DNA of 64,000 bases from an uncultured Actinomycetota bacterium (GCA_963743915.1 CAVURN010000001.1:480001-544000); one strand, 5' to 3'; shown: positions 31,344-39,298, counted from the stretch's first letter. Made by a program: numbers and translations. The notes: generated from the letters alone by a model not told the origin.

Positions 31344-31371
31344 GGAATCATCAAGGGCGCCGAGGGCGTTG
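31344..31371 (+). promoter_or_regulatory. Autoregulatory SigR/SigH promoter
   Basis: GGAAT-N19-GTTG directly upstream of sigR. Confidence 0.6.
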
Positions 31372-31373
31372 AG

Positions 31374-32018
31374 GTGAGCATGATCTGGGCACCCCCCTTT
31401 GCGTTACCGTTGCAGGCGATGACAGCGGAAGAGACCGTCGAAGAGCGTGCCGCCCGGTTCGAGCGTGACGCGTTGCCCTTCCTGGACCAGCTGTACGGCG
31501 CCGCGCTGCGCATGACGCGCAATGCCAGCGATGCCGAGGACCTCGTGCAGGAGACCTACGCGAAGGCGTTCGCCGCTTTCCACCAGTACAAGGACGGCAC
31601 GAACCTCAAGGCTTGGCTGTACCGGATCCTGACGAACACGTTCATCAACTCGTACCGCAAGAAGCAGCGCGAACCGCAGCAGACCGGTACCGACGAGATC
31701 GAGGACTGGCAGATCGCCCGGGCCGAGTCGCACACCTCGAGCGGATTGCGGTCGGCGGAGATCGAAGCGCTCGACCGGCTGCCCGACTCCGACATCAAGG
31801 AGGCGCTGGCGAGCCTGTCGGAGGAGTTCCGCATGGCGGTCTACCTCGCCGACGTCGAGGGCTTCGCCTACAAGGAGATCGCGGAGATCATGGATACTCC
31901 GGTCGGAACCGTGATGTCCCGTCTGCACCGAGGGCGTCGGCAGCTGCGAGCGATGCTCGAGGACTATGCACGTGAGCGCGGTTTCGCCGCCGCCGGCACC
32001 TCTGGAGATGCGTCATGA
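31374..32018 (+). CDS. sigR: ECF sigma factor SigR/SigH
   Basis: [43 protein letters not shown]; followed by a ZAS anti-sigma factor. Confidence 0.93.
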
Positions 32019-32311
32019 GCAATGGCGACGCCCACGAGCTCGACTGCTCCGACGTCGTGGAGGCGGTGTACCTCTACCTCGACGGGGAGCTGGCGACCGA
32101 GGCGATCGAGGAGATCAAGCAGCATCTCGACGAGTGCTCGCCCTGCCTGCGCGAGTACGGCGTCGAGCAGGAGGTCAAGTCCCTCATCGCCAGGAGCTGC
32201 TGCGAGTCGGCCCCGGAGCAGCTGCGGGTAGCGATCCAGCAGCGGCTCGAGGTCGTCCGGACGCAGATGTCGTACACCGAGGTCACCACCTACCGACCCC
32301 TGACCGACTGA
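32015..32311 (+). CDS. rsrA: Zinc anti-sigma factor RsrA/RshA
   Basis: HLDECSPC (HxxxCxxC). Confidence 0.93.
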
Positions 32312-32485: not shown

Positions 32486-33181
32486 TCAGGGACCCAGCCG
32501 ACGGTTGACGGCGGCGAGCACGGCCCGCGCCACCGCATCGGTCTCGTCACCTCGCACCACCGCGCTGCCCGCCACTGACTGCGCACCGAGACGGGGCACC
32601 GAAAGCGTGAGCACGACCAGCGCGACGGCGTGTGATCCGGTCTCGACGACGGCGGCACTCTCGACCGCTGCCGGGATACCGAGCAGCTCGTCGAGCGCAC
32701 TCATCGTGGCGGACGCCACCAGGCGCGGGCGGGCGCTGGCGGCAGCGGCTCCGCGCTCGATCCCCACGAAGGTGTCACCGTCGAGGGTCAGGCGGACCTC
32801 GACCTCGATCTCGGCGCCGGTGCTGCGCACGCCGATCTCGGTGATCTCGGGACGCGCCTGCGCCTCGATCTCCTCGAGCACCTGCACCGTCTCCTCGACG
32901 TCCTCGTCACCGGCAGGAGAGGGCTCGAGGACGCTGGTCGCTCCCGGATCGTCCTCGATCTGCACGACGCTGACGATGCGGTGGTCCAGGTCGATGTCGA
33001 ACTGGGCCATCGCCAGCGACTGCACGTCGCGCACGACCTGCTTGGCGGGCTTTCCCGGCGCAGCCAGCACGTGGACCTCGGTGGGGTTCGCCTGGGCATC
33101 GGTGACGACGCTCACGGCGCGGACGCCGGGGATCTGCCGGATCGACTCTTCGAGGTCGGGAAGCAGGCGCAGGCTCGGCAT
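32486..33181 (-). CDS. Hypothetical protein; C-terminal half resembles the LeuA allosteric (regulatory) domain
   Basis: AGAAGGA RBS; EVHVLA..KPAKQVVRDVQS..DHRIVSVVQI; ends DAVARAVLAAVNRRL. Confidence 0.75.
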   Translation of the reverse strand: MPSLRLLPDLEESIRQIPGVRAVSVVTDAQANPTEVHVLAAPGKPAKQVVRDVQSLAMAQFDIDLDHRIVSVVQIEDDPGATSVLEPSPAGDEDVEETVQVLEEIEAQARPEITEIGVRSTGAEIEVEVRLTLDGDTFVGIERGAAAASARPRLVASATMSALDELLGIPAAVESAAVVETGSHAVALVVLTLSVPRLGAQSVAGSAVVRGDETDAVARAVLAAVNRRLGP

Positions 33182-33254
33182 GAAGGTCAGTCCTTCTCGG
33201 GTCAAGGTCATCGTCGGGATCACCGTGGGGGGTCGGGTGTCGGTCATGGGCAGC

Positions 33255-33705
33255 TCAAGGAAGGGTCCCACGGCGGGGGCCGTCAGGAAGCGGGCGGAGT
33301 CCGGCGACGAGCAGCCGCCGCGAGTGCAGGTCGACGGGCGGGACGGGCTCGTCGGAGTCGTCAGAGTCGCCGGAGTCGTCGGAGTCGTCAGCAGCCGGGG
33401 CTGCGGTCGCGGCGCGCCCGTCGGCGGTCTCCTGGTCGGGCAGCTCCGCCACGCCCCCGGTGAGCTCCCCCTCGAGGGCCACGAGGGTCGCGGGCAGCAC
33501 CGCTCTGGCATGGTCCACCAGCCGGCGCACGGACTCTCGCTGCAGCCATCGGAGCCGTCGGGCCTGTTCGGGGGTCAGCGACCCCTCGGCGACCGCGGTG
33601 TCCAGCGCGCCGTCGAAGGTGGCGGAAGGGGTCGGGTCGGAGAGGTCGAGCAGGGCCGCGACAAGGTCGGCGTACGCCGCCAGGCCGTCCGGCTTCGGTG
33701 CTCAA
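33255..33705 (-). CDS. Hypothetical protein (probable indel near the TTG start)
   Basis: Frame reading PDGLAAYADLVAALLDL..ARRLRWLQRESVRRLVDH..DDSDDSGDSDD; GGAGG RBS before TTG 33705. Confidence 0.6.
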
Positions 33706-33870
33706 CGTTCCCCCTCCCCGGTCGTCGGTGCCGATGGTCGGTGCGCCCCCGCTCGACACCCCCGCCCCCCTGCCTGCAGCAGGCTACGGCGTGCGGGAAA
33801 CTGCCCGGGGAGCACTCTCCGGACACATGCTCCGAACGTGTCCACAATGGTCAGGTAGTGCTACAGGTAC

Positions 33871-33886
33871 TAGCCCGTTCGGGCTA
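33871..33886. promoter_or_regulatory. Palindromic operator candidate
   Basis: TAGCCCG-TT-CGGGCTA in the divergent intergenic region. Confidence 0.45.
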
Positions 33887-33887
33887 A

Positions 33888-34160
33888 TCAAGGGCACAAT
33901 TCGGCCGCGAGTGACAGCCGTCCTTGACGGCCACACCCGTCACACCCTTCACTTCCGTAGCGGCGGTGCTCGGCCTGACGGACACCGCCGCAGACAACTG
34001 CAGAGGGCGGATCCGGGATCGGCAGCGGGTGAGGAGGCTCGGAGCGGGCGCGAGACGCCCTGCTCCCACAGCTTCAACGCGCACGAAATCCCGTTCACAG
34101 GGATCAACTTCGAAGCGGAGCGGATGCTGCGCGAGCCATTCAGCGGGGCTCGCGACATCA
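33888..34160 (+). ncRNA. Candidate structured leader or cis-regulatory RNA
   Basis: Serial hairpins GCCGTC/GACGGC, GCGGCGGTG/CACCGCCGC, GGAGCGGGCG/CGCCCTGCTCC, ATCCC/GGGAT, CGCGAGCC/GGCTCGCG; no convincing CDS. Confidence 0.35.
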
Positions 34161-34184
34161 CGTGCGAGGGGTGATTCCCACAAC

Positions 34185-34250
34185 ATGAGCAAGGTTGTTT
34201 CCGCGGTAGAGCGTTTCCTGTCCAGCGGCGCTGGTTGGTCGTGGCACTAG
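34185..34250 (+). CDS. 21-aa peptide MSKVVSAVERFLSSGAGWSWH
   Basis: Strong SD GAGGGGTGA about 10 nt before ATG; TAG stop; directly upstream of the HD-GYP pair. Confidence 0.6.
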   Translation: MSKVVSAVERFLSSGAGWSWH

Positions 34251-34306
34251 AGACTCGTCGGCTGCCGGTCCCGGATCCTCCCTCACTTCCCCCAGGAGTC
34301 GCTGGT

Positions 34307-35746
34307 ATGCAGCAGCTGCGTCGCGCAGCGGTCGTGTACGTGGCCGTCGTCACGGCTGCCGCGGTCGCTGCGCTGGTTGCTGCCCTCATCGAGGTCACCG
34401 ACAATCCCGATCACCTCGGGGTCGTGGCGGTGCTCGCTCCCATCTTCGTGCTGTCGGTCTACCTCAAGTCGCGGATGACGCAGGAGGTCGACCTCTCGGC
34501 CAACGTGCCCATGCTGATCGCCGCCTACCTGATCGGCGGATGGTCGGTCGCCTGTCTGGTCGGCGTCTCGGCGATCGTGCTCGACCGCCACCGCGCCTGG
34601 TCGCGGCTGCTCTTCAACAATGCCCAGTGGGTGCTGATGGGACTGGCCGGCGGGCTGGTCTACCAGGCCATGGGCGGGAAGCTCATGCAGGACCTCACCC
34701 CCACCGGCTTCACGGAGGATCTGCTGCCGCCGATCATCGTGTCGATCGGGGCCGTCATCGCCGTCAACGCCGCGCTGATGCTCGGGATCCTGGCCTTCCA
34801 GGAGCACATCCGTCCGGCGACGATCCTGCGCAGCATGGTGCTGACCACCGTCGGTCCCTACTTCGCGTACGGACTCCTCGGGCTGCTCATGGCCGTGCTC
34901 TGGTCCATCGGGAGCGGCTTTGCTGCTGTGCTCGTCCTGATCCCACTTCTCGTGGCTCGTTGGGCGTTCGAGCAGTACGCCGAGCAGCGCGTGGCGTACG
35001 AGGCCACCATCCGGTCGCTGGTGCAGGCGGTCGAGACCAAGGACCACTACACCCGTGGCCACAGTGAACGCGTCTCCCGCGCCTCGGTGCTCATCGCGCG
35101 CGTTCTCAGCATGCGCGAAGACCGGGTGGAGGCGCTGCGGTACGCGGGCATCCTGCATGACGTCGGTAAGCTCGGCGTGCCCACGCGGGTGCTGCAGAAG
35201 AGTGGACCGCTCAGCGACCAGGAGTTCGCCGCGATCCAGCTGCACCCGGTGCGCGGCACGGAGATGGTGCGCGGCATCGCCTTCCTGGAGGAGGCGTACA
35301 CCGGCATCCTCCACCACCACGAGCGGCTCGACGGCCGGGGATACCCGAGTGGTTTGTCGGGCGCGGACATCCCCGAGTTCGCCCGGATCATCGCGGTGGC
35401 GGACGCCTTCGACTCGATGACGTCCACCCGCTCGTACCGCGGTGCGCGGGACGTGCCGTCAGCGCTCGAGGAGCTGGAACGCTGCATCGGCACCCAGTTC
35501 GACGAACCGATGGTGCGGGCCCTGATCACCGCACTCGAGCGTGAGCCGTGGACCACTGTTGCAGCCGCCGAGCAGCGTGAGCTGGACGTCGAGCTCGTCG
35601 CCGGCAGCTACGACCACGACGACCCCACGGTCGAGCAGCCCACCGGTCACGACGCCGACGTGGCGGCGGAGGCTGCCCGCGCCGAGGCCCTCGAGCAGAA
35701 GCTTCTCCACGGTCGTGACGTCCTGGACCGGGGGGGCTGGTCATGA
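34307..35746 (+). CDS. Membrane-anchored HD-GYP c-di-GMP phosphodiesterase (canonical motifs)
   Basis: Multi-TM N-terminus; KDHYTRGHSERV, HDVGK, HHHERLDGRGYP, DAFDSMT.RSYR. Confidence 0.92.
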   Translation: MQQLRRAAVVYVAVVTAAAVAALVAALIEVTDNPDHLGVVAVLAPIFVLSVYLKSRMTQEVDLSANVPMLIAAYLIGGWSVACLVGVSAIVLDRHRAWSRLLFNNAQWVLMGLAGGLVYQAMGGKLMQDLTPTGFTEDLLPPIIVSIGAVIAVNAALMLGILAFQEHIRPATILRSMVLTTVGPYFAYGLLGLLMAVLWSIGSGFAAVLVLIPLLVARWAFEQYAEQRVAYEATIRSLVQAVETKDHYTRGHSERVSRASVLIARVLSMREDRVEALRYAGILHDVGKLGVPTRVLQKSGPLSDQEFAAIQLHPVRGTEMVRGIAFLEEAYTGILHHHERLDGRGYPSGLSGADIPEFARIIAVADAFDSMTSTRSYRGARDVPSALEELERCIGTQFDEPMVRALITALEREPWTTVAAAEQRELDVELVAGSYDHDDPTVEQPTGHDADVAAEAARAEALEQKLLHGRDVLDRGGWS

Positions 35747-37038
35747 GGTCCACATGGGCGCAGGAGTTCTCCGGCGGCTCGGTGCTCGTCGTCGTGGGCG
35801 GCCTGCTGCTGGCGGTGGCGGGGGTGGCCTCCGCGGCCACCGGGGACATCGTGGATCCCACGATCGCCGTCGGCTTCGGCGCACTGATCGCCCTGGGTGA
35901 GCTGGTGCGCGTCAACCTTCCGGGAGACCGCTCCGCAGCACCACTCGGGGCAGCGGCGGCCCTGGCCTACGCCCTGCTCGGATCCTTCCGACAGCTCAGC
36001 GGCACGGTAGAGCAGACGGAGTACGGCGTCCTCCAGGTCGTCGCCGTCTGCACCATCGCCGTCATCGTGGGTGCCGTTCCGCACATGGCGGTCGGGCATC
36101 CGCCACGGCTGGAGTCGTTGGCGCGCCGCGTGCTCGTGGCCGGCCTGGCCGCGCTGCTGTTCCGACCCCTCTACACCAACGGCAAGCTGGAAGGGATCAC
36201 TGACGGCGGCTGGCAGCTGCCCGCTCTCATGCTCGTCATCGTGCTGGTCTGCGGTGTGGCCGACGCGCTGCTCGCCGCGCTCGCGCGCGCCGGCCGCGAG
36301 AGCATGCCGTTCGGCGCGGCGGCGCGTGACGAGTTCCGCGCGCTGCTCGGGATCGGCTCGGCCATCGGCGCGACCGGTGTCCTCATCGCCCTGGCGGCAG
36401 GGGTGATGGGCTTCTGGGCGTTGCCGCTGTTCATGCTGCCGCTGCTGGCTGCCCAGTTCTCGTTCCGGCGGTACGCCAGCATCCGGGCGACCTACTTGCA
36501 GACCATCCGGGCGTTGTCGCGCGTGACCGAGGTCGGTGGGTACACCGAGAGCGGTCACGCGCAACGCGTGGCACGCCTGTCGGTCGCAGTCGGACGTGAG
36601 ATGGGCTTGTCGGAGGCAGACCTCGTCGATCTCGAGTACGCGGCTCTCATGCATGACATCGGGCAGCTCTCGCTCACCGACCCGATCCCCGGAGGTGCGA
36701 CCGTGATGGTCGCTCGCGACGAGCAGCGACGCATCGCCGAGCTCGGCGCCGAGGTGATCCGGCAGACCGGTGTCATGGATCGCGTCGCGCACATCGTGGA
36801 GCAGCAGGCCGAGCCGTTCCGGCGTCCTGGTCAACCCTTCGACGCAAGCGTCCCGGTCGCGAGCCGCATCATCCGCGTGGTGAACGCCTACGACGACCTG
36901 GTGGGTGGCTCCCTCGACACCGATCGACGGATCGCGGCGCTGGACCGGTTGCGGCTCGGAGTCGCCTACGAGTACGACCCGCACGTGGTCGATCTCGTCA
37001 GTCGCGCGGTCGAGCGCACCATGCTGGTCGACGCCTGA
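35743..37038 (+). CDS. Membrane-anchored degenerate HD-GYP protein
   Basis: TM N-terminus; YTESGHAQRV and HDIGQ present, HHE/GYP motifs absent; ATGA-coupled to the previous gene. Confidence 0.88.
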   Translation: MRSTWAQEFSGGSVLVVVGGLLLAVAGVASAATGDIVDPTIAVGFGALIALGELVRVNLPGDRSAAPLGAAAALAYALLGSFRQLSGTVEQTEYGVLQVVAVCTIAVIVGAVPHMAVGHPPRLESLARRVLVAGLAALLFRPLYTNGKLEGITDGGWQLPALMLVIVLVCGVADALLAALARAGRESMPFGAAARDEFRALLGIGSAIGATGVLIALAAGVMGFWALPLFMLPLLAAQFSFRRYASIRATYLQTIRALSRVTEVGGYTESGHAQRVARLSVAVGREMGLSEADLVDLEYAALMHDIGQLSLTDPIPGGATVMVARDEQRRIAELGAEVIRQTGVMDRVAHIVEQQAEPFRRPGQPFDASVPVASRIIRVVNAYDDLVGGSLDTDRRIAALDRLRLGVAYEYDPHVVDLVSRAVERTMLVDA

Positions 37039-37053
37039 CCTGCCCACAGTCCT

Positions 37054-37770
37054 TTGACAGAGTTCCTGCTGCTCGCTGCGGCGACGGCAGCGGCCGGGAT
37101 GCTCAGCGCCGTCACCGGGTTCGGTGGCGCTGTCATCGTGACTCCCCTCTTCGTGGCGGTCCTGGGTGTCCGAGATGCCGTCGCAGTCCTGACCGTCGTC
37201 CAGCTCGCGAGCAACGTGAGCCGTGTCGCCTTCAACCGCCACGACGTGGACCGGTCGATCGTGCTCGCCTTCAGCGCTGGCGCCGTGCCCGCCGCGGTGG
37301 TCGGCTCGTTGCTCTTCGCCGTCGCCCCCGTGCCGGCCCTGGTGCGGGCCGTCGGCGTCTTCCTGCTGGTCGCCGTGGTGTGGCTGCGGCTGGCCCCGTC
37401 GATGCCTCGGCTCGGCGGTCCGGCGTTCGCGGGGCTCGGGGCCGCGTCCGGACTCGGTTCGGCGCTGGTGGGCAGCGTCGGCCCGTTCGTGGCCCCCTTC
37501 TTCCTCTCTCAGGGGTTGGTGCGCGGCGCGTACATCGGCACCGAGGCCGCGTCCGCTGTCGTCATGCACCTGGTCAAGCTGGTCGTCTACGGAGCCGTGG
37601 CCGTGCTGACGACGAGCGGTCTGCTGTACGGTCTGGCGCTCGCACCGGCGAGTGTGGCGGGATCGTGGATGGGACGTCGCGTGGTCGATCGCATGCCGGT
37701 CGCCGTCTTTCGCGCCGTGGTGGAGGTCGGCCTCGTGGTGGCGGGGCTGCTCCTGATCCTGCGCGGATGA
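37054..37770 (+). CDS. TauE/SafE sulfite exporter family protein
   Basis: SAVTGFGGAV, ALVGSVGP, YIGTEA; about 8 TM. Confidence 0.88.
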   Translation: MTEFLLLAAATAAAGMLSAVTGFGGAVIVTPLFVAVLGVRDAVAVLTVVQLASNVSRVAFNRHDVDRSIVLAFSAGAVPAAVVGSLLFAVAPVPALVRAVGVFLLVAVVWLRLAPSMPRLGGPAFAGLGAASGLGSALVGSVGPFVAPFFLSQGLVRGAYIGTEAASAVVMHLVKLVVYGAVAVLTTSGLLYGLALAPASVAGSWMGRRVVDRMPVAVFRAVVEVGLVVAGLLLILRG

Positions 37771-38098: not shown

Positions 38099-39298
38099 GT
38101 GGAGACCTCTGAGTTCACAACCGACGCCCTCGGGAGCGCCGACGTCATGGATGTCGACCTCCCCGAGTCCGCTGCCGACCCCCTGCCCGCGCCGGCACAG
38201 ACCCAGCAGACGGGGCCGCTGTCGGTCGAGCCCTACCTCCGTGCGCTGGTCGAGGTGGGTGGCTCGGACCTGCACTGCAAGACCGGGTCGCCGCCACGGG
38301 TCCGGATCGATGGTCGACTGCGCAAGCTGCAGGCCCCGACCCTCACCGCCACCGACACCGAGCACATGGTCGGTGAGGTGCTGCGGGACCGTCCCGACCT
38401 CTGGCAGGAGTTCCTGGCGACCAACGAGGCGGACTTTGCGCACTCGATCCCCGGCGTCGGCCGCTTCCGCGTCAACGCCTTCCGGGCGCGTGGCTCAGCG
38501 GGGCTGGTCTTCCGCCGCGTCTCCGTCGGGGCGATCGGGCTCGAGGACCTCGGACTGCCGCAGGTCGTGTCCGCGCTGTCCATGGAGCCGCGCGGCCTGG
38601 TGCTCGTGACGGGACCGACGGGCTCGGGCAAGACGACCACGCTCGCGGGCATGATCGACGAGATCAACAACAACCGCGAGGTGCATGTCGTCACGATCGA
38701 GGACCCCATCGAGGTCCTGCACTTCGACAAGCTCTCGATGATCAACCAGCGCGAGGTGAAGCTCGACACCTCCGGCTTCCACACCGCGCTGCGCGCCGCG
38801 ATGCGGCAGGACCCCGACGTGATCCTCGTGGGTGAGATGCGTGACTCCGAGACCGTCAAGGCTGCGCTCGCCGCGGCCGAGACCGGTCACTTCGTGCTGT
38901 CGACTCTGCACACGACGGACGCGGCTGAGACCGTCAACCGCATCATCGACTTCTTCCCGCCGCACGAGCAGAAGCAGATCCGGATGACACTCTCGGAGTC
39001 GCTGCGGGGGATCCTCTGCCAGCGGCTGGTGCCCCGGTCGGACGGGTACGGCCGGTGCGTCACCATGGAGGTCCTCGTCAACACCGGCCGGATCGCCGAC
39101 GCCATCGCCGACCCCGAGAAGACCGGCACGATCACCCAGCTGATCAGCGAGGGCTCGTACTACGGGATGCAGACCTTCGACCAGCACCTGGTCTCGCTCA
39201 TCCGAGACGGCGTCATCACGCTGGAAGCGGCGATGCTGGCGTCGAGCAGCCCGCACGACCTCACCGTCGAGCTGCGTCGCCTGGGCCTGGTGGCCTGA
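38099..39298 (+). CDS. pilT: Type IV pilus retraction ATPase PilT/PilU family
   Basis: GSDLH, GPTGSGKTTT, TIEDPIE, RQDPDVILVGEMRD, TGH..STLHT, GMQTFDQ. Confidence 0.9.
   Translation: METSEFTTDALGSADVMDVDLPESAADPLPAPAQTQQTGPLSVEPYLRALVEVGGSDLHCKTGSPPRVRIDGRLRKLQAPTLTATDTEHMVGEVLRDRPDLWQEFLATNEADFAHSIPGVGRFRVNAFRARGSAGLVFRRVSVGAIGLEDLGLPQVVSALSMEPRGLVLVTGPTGSGKTTTLAGMIDEINNNREVHVVTIEDPIEVLHFDKLSMINQREVKLDTSGFHTALRAAMRQDPDVILVGEMRDSETVKAALAAAETGHFVLSTLHTTDAAETVNRIIDFFPPHEQKQIRMTLSESLRGILCQRLVPRSDGYGRCVTMEVLVNTGRIADAIADPEKTGTITQLISEGSYYGMQTFDQHLVSLIRDGVITLEAAMLASSSPHDLTVELRRLGLVA

Follow-up and report, generated by a model that had tools for sequence, protein, structure and literature searches.

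In Streptomyces venezuelae HdgA and HdgB (vnz24090 and vnz24095) have been described as an HD-GYP protein with six transmembrane (6TM) segments and a 6TM protein with a degenerate HD-GYP domain (PMC6205966, in the part available to us). The available parts of PMC6205966 and PMC13232838 place hdgA and hdgB among the least expressed cyclic di-GMP (c-di-GMP) genes of this organism, report no phenotype for them and give their activating signal as unknown. The first of these sources agrees in this with an earlier, sequence-only reading of the DNA studied here, according to which the Streptomyces pair has no known input signal. In the accessible sections of Galperin and Chou (10.1101/2021.11.05.467447) HdgA is the only characterised MASE9 protein, and c-di-GMP hydrolysis by S. 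venezuelae HdgA is cited as a personal communication only. PepNL and TnaC are short open reading frames (ORFs) that act through termination arrest (PMC11890864, as far as its accessible text goes). Here we describe, in a stretch of 64,000 nucleotides (nt) from an uncultured Actinomycetota bacterium (GCA_963743915.1 CAVURN010000001.1:480001-544000; the whole stretch is called the window below, and all coordinates that carry no locus name refer to it), an unannotated ORF of 21 codons which heads an operon of HdgA/HdgB type (34185-37038) and which is a candidate leader peptide of that operon. Gene callers and family libraries have missed this micro-ORF, although related ones are found in 61 of 78 related loci. 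Together with the covarying leader RNA around it, the conserved, unannotated ORF gives a concrete handle on HdgA/HdgB, weakly expressed and conserved membrane proteins of actinomycetes without a phenotype or a known signal. In the literature listings and the paper sections covered, no description of an ORF or an RNA leader upstream of hdgA was found.

The small ORF lies on the + strand at 34185-34250, with its ATG at 34185 and its TAG stop at 34248-34250, and its 21 sense codons encode the peptide MSKVVSAVERFLSSGAGWSWH. A Shine-Dalgarno (SD)-like sequence, GAGGGGTGA (34166-34174, +), stands 10 nt before the ATG, and AAGGGG or AAGGAG is kept at this position in the leader alignments A2 and A7. 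The ATG of hdgA (34307) follows the stop codon after 56 nt and is preceded by AGGAG at 34294-34298, while the stop codon of hdgA overlaps the ATG of hdgB (35743) by ATGA. Thus the sequence-only reading was right in describing a 21-codon ORF behind a strong SD, 56 nt before a translationally coupled HD-GYP pair. The reading frame of the small ORF extends upstream in the window to a TTG at 33924, which gives an ORF of 108 amino acids. Since in the relatives such an extension is interrupted 2-46 codons before the conserved start, the short ORF is the conserved unit. It is present in a single copy within the window. No Pfam or NCBIfam model matched the peptide, and no match was found among the predicted proteins of 30-58 amino acids in a 5.8-billion set (the query was the 108-amino-acid window ORF, region 69-108), which bears out the suggestion that gene callers miss it. 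The peptide contains no Asp and no Pro, ends in W-S-W-H, has two Trp among its 21 residues, and with a mean hydropathy of 0.14 it has no transmembrane (TM) stretch. Its residues 1-13 are amphipathic when taken as a helix, as had been claimed, the hydrophobic moment (muH) of 0.65 being reached by 12 of 5000 shuffles.

For comparison, 15 HdgA homologues were aligned and used to search for related loci, and the 80 best were taken with one genome per species; 78 of these had upstream sequence, and no Streptomyces locus was among the 80. An hdgB homologue directly follows hdgA in all 80 loci, and sigR and rsrA lie upstream of hdgA in 72 of them (counted from the synteny table), which is the gene order and neighbourhood of the S. 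venezuelae pair. The proposed link of the small ORF with a membrane HD-GYP pair next to sigR-rsrA is upheld by this synteny. The sole sampling of other phyla comprised two plasmid loci of Bacillota, neither of which had such an ORF.

ORFs of the window's type were defined by the strict pattern M-x-x-[ILVM]-x-x-A-[ILV]-E-x-F-[LIVM]-x(3-7)-W-x-W with a stop 0-3 codons later. Besides the window, eight of the 80 loci fit this pattern (L001, L002, L005, L006, L008, L016, L018 and L025), every one with an ORF of 20-23 codons just upstream of hdgA; the HdgA proteins of six of the strict-pattern loci are 49-55% identical to that of the window. A hidden Markov model (HMM) of the peptide scored the strict-pattern ORFs at E <= 6e-13 among 13,890 frame segments and added L013; L009, L011 and L003 were weak matches, and L004 appeared only at E 9.1. 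Alignment of the leaders shows the ORF to be gap-free and both its flanks to be rich in insertions and deletions, and synonymous changes are seen at Ala7, Val8 and Leu12. The ratio of nonsynonymous to synonymous change (pN/pS) over codons 2-20 was 0.54 in this frame, versus 1.21 and 1.28 in the other two. In L013 (2834-2900) a window-type ORF is split by a one-base frame shift, with the N-terminal part MKKIVSAVEQFLQTT in one frame and the end AAWKW-stop in another; the locus may be truly mutated, or the metagenome-assembled genome (MAG) may be misassembled here.

In the loci of Streptosporangiales a short ORF with a good SD was also found, ending shortly before hdgA. The peptides of Nonomuraea and Streptosporangium are MLKVTVARLLTAIVLITPVVMVIGGVVPPGVSWT and MLKETVTPVFPGISWT, respectively; that of Nocardiopsis ends in ...HVNGWSWW, those of several uncultured lineages in ...RGVAWG or ...SGTTWG, and the peptide of L056 is MRKGVSWA. 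The part common to all families is G-[W/V/I]-[S/T/x]-W-x-stop, or W-x-W-stop. A short ORF ending in the motif pattern G..W.?-stop or W.W.{0,3}-stop, which was written after the data had been seen, lies at most 160 nt from hdgA in 61 of the 78 loci, while 69 of 7123 same-size windows from both strands of the same loci (0.97%) contained one. The number of independent motif events is lower than 61 because many of the loci are congeneric. A conserved (S/A)GAGWxW C-terminus with synonymous bias had been set as a test by the sequence-only reading; the bias was indeed found, and the C-terminus is conserved in the broader form given above. The genera with the motif include at least Nonomuraea, Streptosporangium, Microtetraspora, Planomonospora, Nocardiopsis, Actinoallomurus and Trebonia, and it is also present in MAGs labelled Sporichthyaceae, Streptomycetales and Nanopelagicales.

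For the Gly three codons ahead of the last Trp, 50 distinct ORF ends showed GGG (18), GGC (10), GGT (6) and GGA (6). Since all four Gly codons are used, the constraint acts on the amino acids, and the hydrophobic residue before the Trp is likewise conserved at the amino-acid level. In the 64 motif-ending segments, the window included, a start codon was found in 62 and an SD-like word in 60, the latter count being inflated because the best candidate start was chosen; their stops are TGA (44), TAG (13) and TAA (7). These ORFs have lengths of 8-40 amino acids and mean hydropathies of -0.87 to +1.62, and their N-terminal parts range from polar to TM-like, only the last five residues and the stop being common to the families. 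The Nonomuraea forms (34-39 amino acids) have a TM-like hydrophobic stretch, and in the Nonomuraea-Microtetraspora set the mean column identity is 59% for the peptide versus 88% for HdgA. The Streptosporangiaceae forms contain one Trp codon and the window's type two. Tandem short ORFs precede hdgA in two loci. In L003 (984-1049 and 1138-1224) the second ends in NWKW-stop, with the unit present twice, and in L004 (3016-3081 and 3206-3235) the second has nine codons, encodes MALAHWRWD and ends in HWRWD-stop; in both loci the first ORF is window-like with a single terminal Trp. Judged from these alignments, the ORF is conserved and not a product of chance, and selection acts on its amino acids.

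In 17 of the 78 loci HdgA and HdgB are kept without a motif ORF, and the leaders are other and shorter. These loci belong to Thermomonospora, three Streptacidiphilus, L009, L011 and about ten uncultured lineages. In L009 and L011, which are of Acidothermaceae type, a related ORF ends in TKWS-stop, outside the motif pattern, and the approximately ten uncultured lineages have a short leader with a GTTACTCTAAGTGGCG-like box. The three Streptacidiphilus loci (L028, L063 and L069) differ from the window's type in that no Trp-ended ORF occurs approx. 40-120 nt upstream of hdgA; within this one genus a conserved frame ends in ...V(E/A)FF(V/A)ER(L)PL(S)CGRCAMN-stop. The Acidothermaceae MAG L011 has 2.9 tandem copies of a 56-nt unit (218-381, 99% matches) in the stretch from the small ORF to hdgA, and L009 has one copy of this unit. 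The leaders of Streptosporangiaceae contain an invariant box, TTGATTACGCTTTGCTTGCGATT (A4 columns 96-118; e.g. L010 3295-3317), and a related box, GCGTTACTCTAAGTGGCG, is present approx. 70-110 nt upstream of hdgA in the ORF-less leaders of L044, L076, L078 and L038; these boxes could be a promoter or an operator.

In the window's lineage the ORF was found to lie inside a structured leader RNA, which had been absent from the earlier description of the locus. Approx. 180 nt before the ORF stands the block GACAACTGCAGAGGGCGG.ATC.GGGATCGGCAGC, whose reverse complement forms the block that begins 10 nt past the ORF stop. In the RNAalifold consensus of nine leaders a 23-bp helix rich in G+C closes an RNA domain of approx. 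280 nt; its 5' arm, GAGGGCGGATCCGGGATCGGCAGC, is at 34003-34026 (+) and its 3' arm, GCTGCCGGTCCCGGATCCTCCCTC, which starts 10 nt after the stop of the small ORF, at 34261-34284 (+). In this helix 97.6% of the cells are paired and 11 of the 23 pairs show compensatory change; none of 500 shuffles reached the observed values, and slid controls were 36-45% paired. The G-U pairs of the helix are compatible with the + strand only, and the helix is present in every minimum-energy fold of the nine leaders. Enclosed by it are, in this order, a variable region, a conserved core of approx. 75 nt, the SD of the ORF and the ORF. The core (34111-34187, +, alignment A7) comprises AGCGGAGCGGA, a small hairpin (34120-34130), a covarying hairpin with a UAGCGG loop (34131-34136/34148-34153, five of six pairs compensatory) and GACAUGA (GACAT in the DNA, followed by the ribosome-binding site of the small ORF); the AGCGG repeats are invariant. 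A covariance model of the core, R1, matched 12 of 81 sources, namely the 10 used for building it plus L009 and L011 (E 8.7e-15), and L009 has a long-range helix at the equivalent place with a different sequence.

The conserved box GACAACTGCAGAG (33993-34005, +) stands at the 5' foot of the long-range helix; it is nearly invariant in nine of nine leaders of A2/A3 and is also found in L009 and L013. On the other side, past the 3' arm, the sequence is rich in C and free of U-runs. The conserved C-rich tract CTTCCCCC, which is also present in L009, is followed here by the hdgA SD AGGAG (34286-34298, +), and the ribosome-binding site of hdgA lies approx. 10 nt after the closing helix. Further upstream, conserved columns of A2 contain a promoter-like block (33924-33953, +) composed of TTGACG (33924-33929), an 18-nt spacer and TTCACT (33948-33953), which occurs in L004 as well. 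It is regarded as a putative promoter since a consensus promoter scan found nothing there; if it is the promoter, the leader of the window's lineage is approx. 340 nt long. Rfam 15, the c-di-GMP riboswitches included, gave no match at the gathering score in the whole window, and at E <= 10 only a chance miRNA match was obtained in 33500-34400. A pairing of the coding sequence of the ORF with the 5' arm or with the 3' strand of the hairpin, suggested as an alternative by a truncated alignment fold, was rejected on the reading of A7, where the ORF side is invariant and fixed by its amino acids and the hairpin side varies without compensation.

On these grounds we tentatively favour the explanation that the 21-codon ORF encodes a cis-acting leader peptide which would govern the expression of hdgAB. 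Translation of the ORF, pausing at its end, an effect on hdgAB and a sensed signal are all parts of this explanation that we infer from sequence. With G-[W/V/I]-[S/T]-W-x as the C-terminus of its nascent chain, a ribosome would arrive at the ORF end, where it would pause or terminate slowly, and this event would set the expression level of hdgAB. In Streptosporangiaceae the hdgA ribosome-binding site might be occluded by such a ribosome, or re-initiation might take place at it, because the ORF stop is only approx. 16-40 nt from the hdgA start. In case of the window's type the event might alter the fate of the helix-closed domain, by processing of the 23-bp duplex, by access of Rho to the C-rich 3' arm or by refolding. 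The leader-peptide explanation was ranked first because the last five residues and the stop position are kept across the families whatever precedes them, because the ORF is located in the leader of an operon, surrounded in one lineage by a covarying RNA domain, because tiny and duplicated versions of it exist, and because it has been lost in some lineages while HdgA and HdgB stay. A nascent-chain or termination signal calls for these features, a free N-terminus with the last five residues and the stop position fixed, and the 17 loci without the ORF fit the turnover of a regulatory element. The low expression of hdgA and hdgB in S. venezuelae would be compatible with a repressive leader. Since the leader is folded and the conservation extends across several actinobacterial families, the ORF is probably a control element of this operon.

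The leader-peptide explanation has its nearest parallels in TnaC and PepNL. As in these, a short ORF (14-24 codons) with its own SD lies in an operon leader, a Trp and the C-terminal residues next to the stop are conserved, the conserved residues fall into two blocks (positions 7-12 and the last five), and the exit tunnel of the ribosome could hold the peptide over its entire length. The TnaC signature is W12-x3-D16-x7-P24-stop with a tryptophanase gene downstream, but the window peptide is without this pattern, and the downstream genes encode membrane HD-GYP proteins and not tryptophanase or pepN. The ORF also differs from TnaC and PepNL in being enclosed by a long-range helix and in the variable identity of its stop codon in the window's type, and stalling is only proposed here.

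Several results weigh against a cis-acting leader peptide. The spacing of the ORF stop and the hdgA start is uneven, roughly 16 to 140 nt, and all three stop codons, TAG, TAA and TGA, are used within the window's type. No terminator-like site was found in 33400-34500, and no statistically supported long-range helix in the Streptosporangiales leaders, where RNAalifold on A4 gave only invariant, weak pairs. In constrained folding of nine leaders the hdgA ribosome-binding site had an accessibility of 0.28-0.58, and this was the same whether no ribosome was placed on the leader, one was held at the ORF stop or the whole ORF was covered. Because the accessibility was unchanged, the simple model in which a stalled ribosome unmasks this site was rejected for the window's type, and as this test was negative the connection between the ORF and hdgAB is one that we still infer. 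Finally, the window-type peptide is strongly conserved over its whole length (14 of 20 residues are shared between the window and L008, whose HdgA proteins are 50% identical), and its first 13 residues make a markedly amphipathic helix, which gives it the look of a peptide that folds and has a function. In the Streptosporangiales leaders, the best duplexes that the upstream part can form with the segment from the ORF stop to hdgA, considered separately in 32 loci, were no better than shuffles (mean z -0.18), and an inverted repeat covering the hdgA SD in L010 is therefore unsupported.

The conservation of the whole peptide and its amphipathic helix would be expected if the micropeptide acted in trans on HdgA/HdgB and switched c-di-GMP hydrolysis, as a membrane-surface or TM partner of the MASE9-type domains, as a small subunit encoded by the first gene, or as a processed C-terminal aromatic signal. 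This was the interpretation put forward by the sequence-only reading, which took the peptide for a ligand, subunit or processed signal of the TM domains; the results do not establish such a role, and we consider it rather unlikely. Besides the conservation throughout the window-type peptide and its amphipathic residues 1-13, such a role would be consistent with the Nonomuraea and Nocardiopsis forms, in which a TM-like or signal-like stretch is followed by an aromatic tail, and with the position of the ORF, which invariably precedes the genes of the two membrane proteins directly and on their strand. For MASE9, Galperin and Chou place ligand binding probably inside the membrane (10.1101/2021.11.05.467447, in the sections available). 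A peptide of 8, 9 or 16 residues, or one with a polar or basic N-terminus, as found in several lineages, speaks against a role in trans, as do the 17 of the 78 loci in which HdgA and HdgB are kept without the ORF. Processed peptide signals such as Phr and ComS/XIP likewise combine a conserved C-terminus with a free N-terminus, but signal peptides usually diversify, whereas the C-terminal motif is uniform across the families, and no export or processing genes were found among the eight neighbouring ORFs scanned. The covarying RNA domain around the ORF would be left unexplained as well. A complex prediction for the 34-residue Nonomuraea form (A5) with residues 1-235 of HdgA (A6) returned a score of 0.00, i.e. 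no answer, and is evidence neither way.

Known peptides of this kind include MgrB, which acts on PhoQ, and KdpF, the first gene product of kdpFABC, both small partners of membrane sensors or pumps, and the short aromatic peptide signals ComS/XIP, SHP and Phr. The ORF resembles them in being unannotated, tens of codons long and adjacent to a membrane-sensor gene, with some TM-like relatives, and the peptide starts with M-K-K and carries an aromatic tail at its C-terminus. Unlike MgrB and KdpF, the window peptide has no membrane-spanning stretch (the Nonomuraea forms have one); forms of 8-16 residues exist, and binding to a partner is only a candidate function here. Unlike in the ComS, SHP and Phr systems, the eight neighbouring ORFs scanned included no gene for a receptor of RRNPP type, an exporter or a protease. 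Given the free N-terminus, the loci without the ORF and the covarying RNA, a cis-acting leader fits the data at least as well as a ligand.

The Trp codons themselves might be what is sensed. Ribosomes would slow at UGG when charged tRNA-Trp is scarce, and hdgAB would be coupled to the tryptophan supply or to translation stress. Trp is enriched in these peptides (2 of the 21 residues of the window peptide, 3-4 of the 28-40 in the Nocardiopsis forms and, in the second ORFs of L003 and L004, 4 of 28 and 2 of 9, respectively), the W-x-W-x-stop layout resembles the end of E. coli trpL, and Trp-codon leaders are known in Streptomyces (trpE, trpRS1). In common with these Trp attenuators, the Trp codons stand a few codons before the stop and a structured leader precedes the operon. 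In many relatives, however, among them the Streptosporangiaceae forms, there is a single Trp codon, and the Gly and the hydrophobic residue before it are kept as amino acids, a conservation that codon sensing does not require. The region 33400-34500 contains no terminator/antiterminator pair and, unlike the Trp attenuators, no terminator hairpin with a U-run; no genes of tryptophan metabolism were seen in the operon. We regard this explanation as improbable.

It is still far less probable that the leader acts as RNA only, i.e. as a riboswitch or a protein-binding RNA in which the open frame is an untranslated by-product of RNA conservation: the covarying helix and hairpin, the conserved 75-nt core, the invariant AGCGG repeats and the frequent control of c-di-GMP genes by riboswitches speak for it, but the synonymous third positions, the conserved start, the conserved stop position and the freedom from indels belong to this frame only, ORFs with the same C-terminus occur in leaders without this RNA core, and no Rfam match was obtained even at E <= 10. 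The GEMM-I/II riboswitches likewise have a structured, conserved 5' leader before a c-di-GMP turnover gene; the present leader differs from them in containing an ORF that is predicted to be translated. A type I toxin with fold-back inhibition, suggested by the pairing of the 5' and 3' parts, was rejected as the peptide is not hydrophobic and the ORF is syntenic with hdgAB across families.

As to the cis-acting leader peptide, its C-terminal motif matches neither TnaC nor PepNL, its RNA core matches no Rfam family, and each of them could define a new regulatory family. An extended form of the explanation, which we offer as a speculation and judge to be distinctly unlikely, would see in the Trp-ended ORF a new class of sensory leader peptides (G-Phi-S/T-W-x-stop) that halt the ribosome on a cellular signal and, together with a new RNA domain in the window's lineage, would constitute the missing input of an orphan MASE9 HD-GYP operon which neighbours the redox sigma factor throughout Actinomycetota. 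In a bolder variant, the released peptide would also be an intramembrane MASE9 ligand, and one ORF would act both in cis and in trans.

The operon itself consists of two genes on the + strand. The first (34307-35746) encodes an HdgA-like protein of 479 amino acids with a multi-TM N-terminal domain and an intact HD-GYP domain (Pfam HD_5, 8.9e-38), in which the HDVGK, HHHE and GYP motifs are all present. The second (35743-37038) encodes an HdgB-like protein of 431 amino acids with a multi-TM N-terminal domain and a degenerate HD-GYP domain (Pfam HD_5, 4.1e-14), which has HDIG only, without HHxE and without GYP. Each of the two contains 5-6 hydrophobic 19-residue segments within its first approx. 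230 residues. Neither gave a Pfam MASE9 match at E <= 0.01, and the HdgA homologues P0079 and P0115, which are 51-53% identical, matched MASE9 at 2.8e-6 and 2.2e-7. By its sequence the pair is of the HdgA/HdgB type, with N-terminal domains that are probably of MASE9 type and a predicted c-di-GMP phosphodiesterase activity.

Upstream of hdgA lie a sigR-like gene for an extracytoplasmic function (ECF) sigma factor (31374-32018) and a zinc anti-sigma gene (32015-32311). Promoters of SigR type have the consensus GGAAT-N17-19-GTT. A match, GGAAT-N19-GTT, was found at 31344-31370 (+), directly before the sigR-like gene; it was the sole match nearby, and a SigR-type promoter upstream of the hdgA leader was rejected, as no match was present there. 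An ORF of 341 amino acids without a Pfam or NCBIfam family (32486-33511, -) is divergent from the leader, and its closest Atlas clusters are unannotated. Its C-terminal approx. 250 residues are kept with 46-83% identity in nine loci (L001, L002, L005, L006, L008, L009, L013, L018 and L025), all of which have a leader of the window's type. After hdgB follow a gene for a TauE/SafE-family membrane protein (37054-37770, +) and one for a PilT-like T2SSE ATPase (38099-39298, +), the latter being found downstream in several window-type loci as well.

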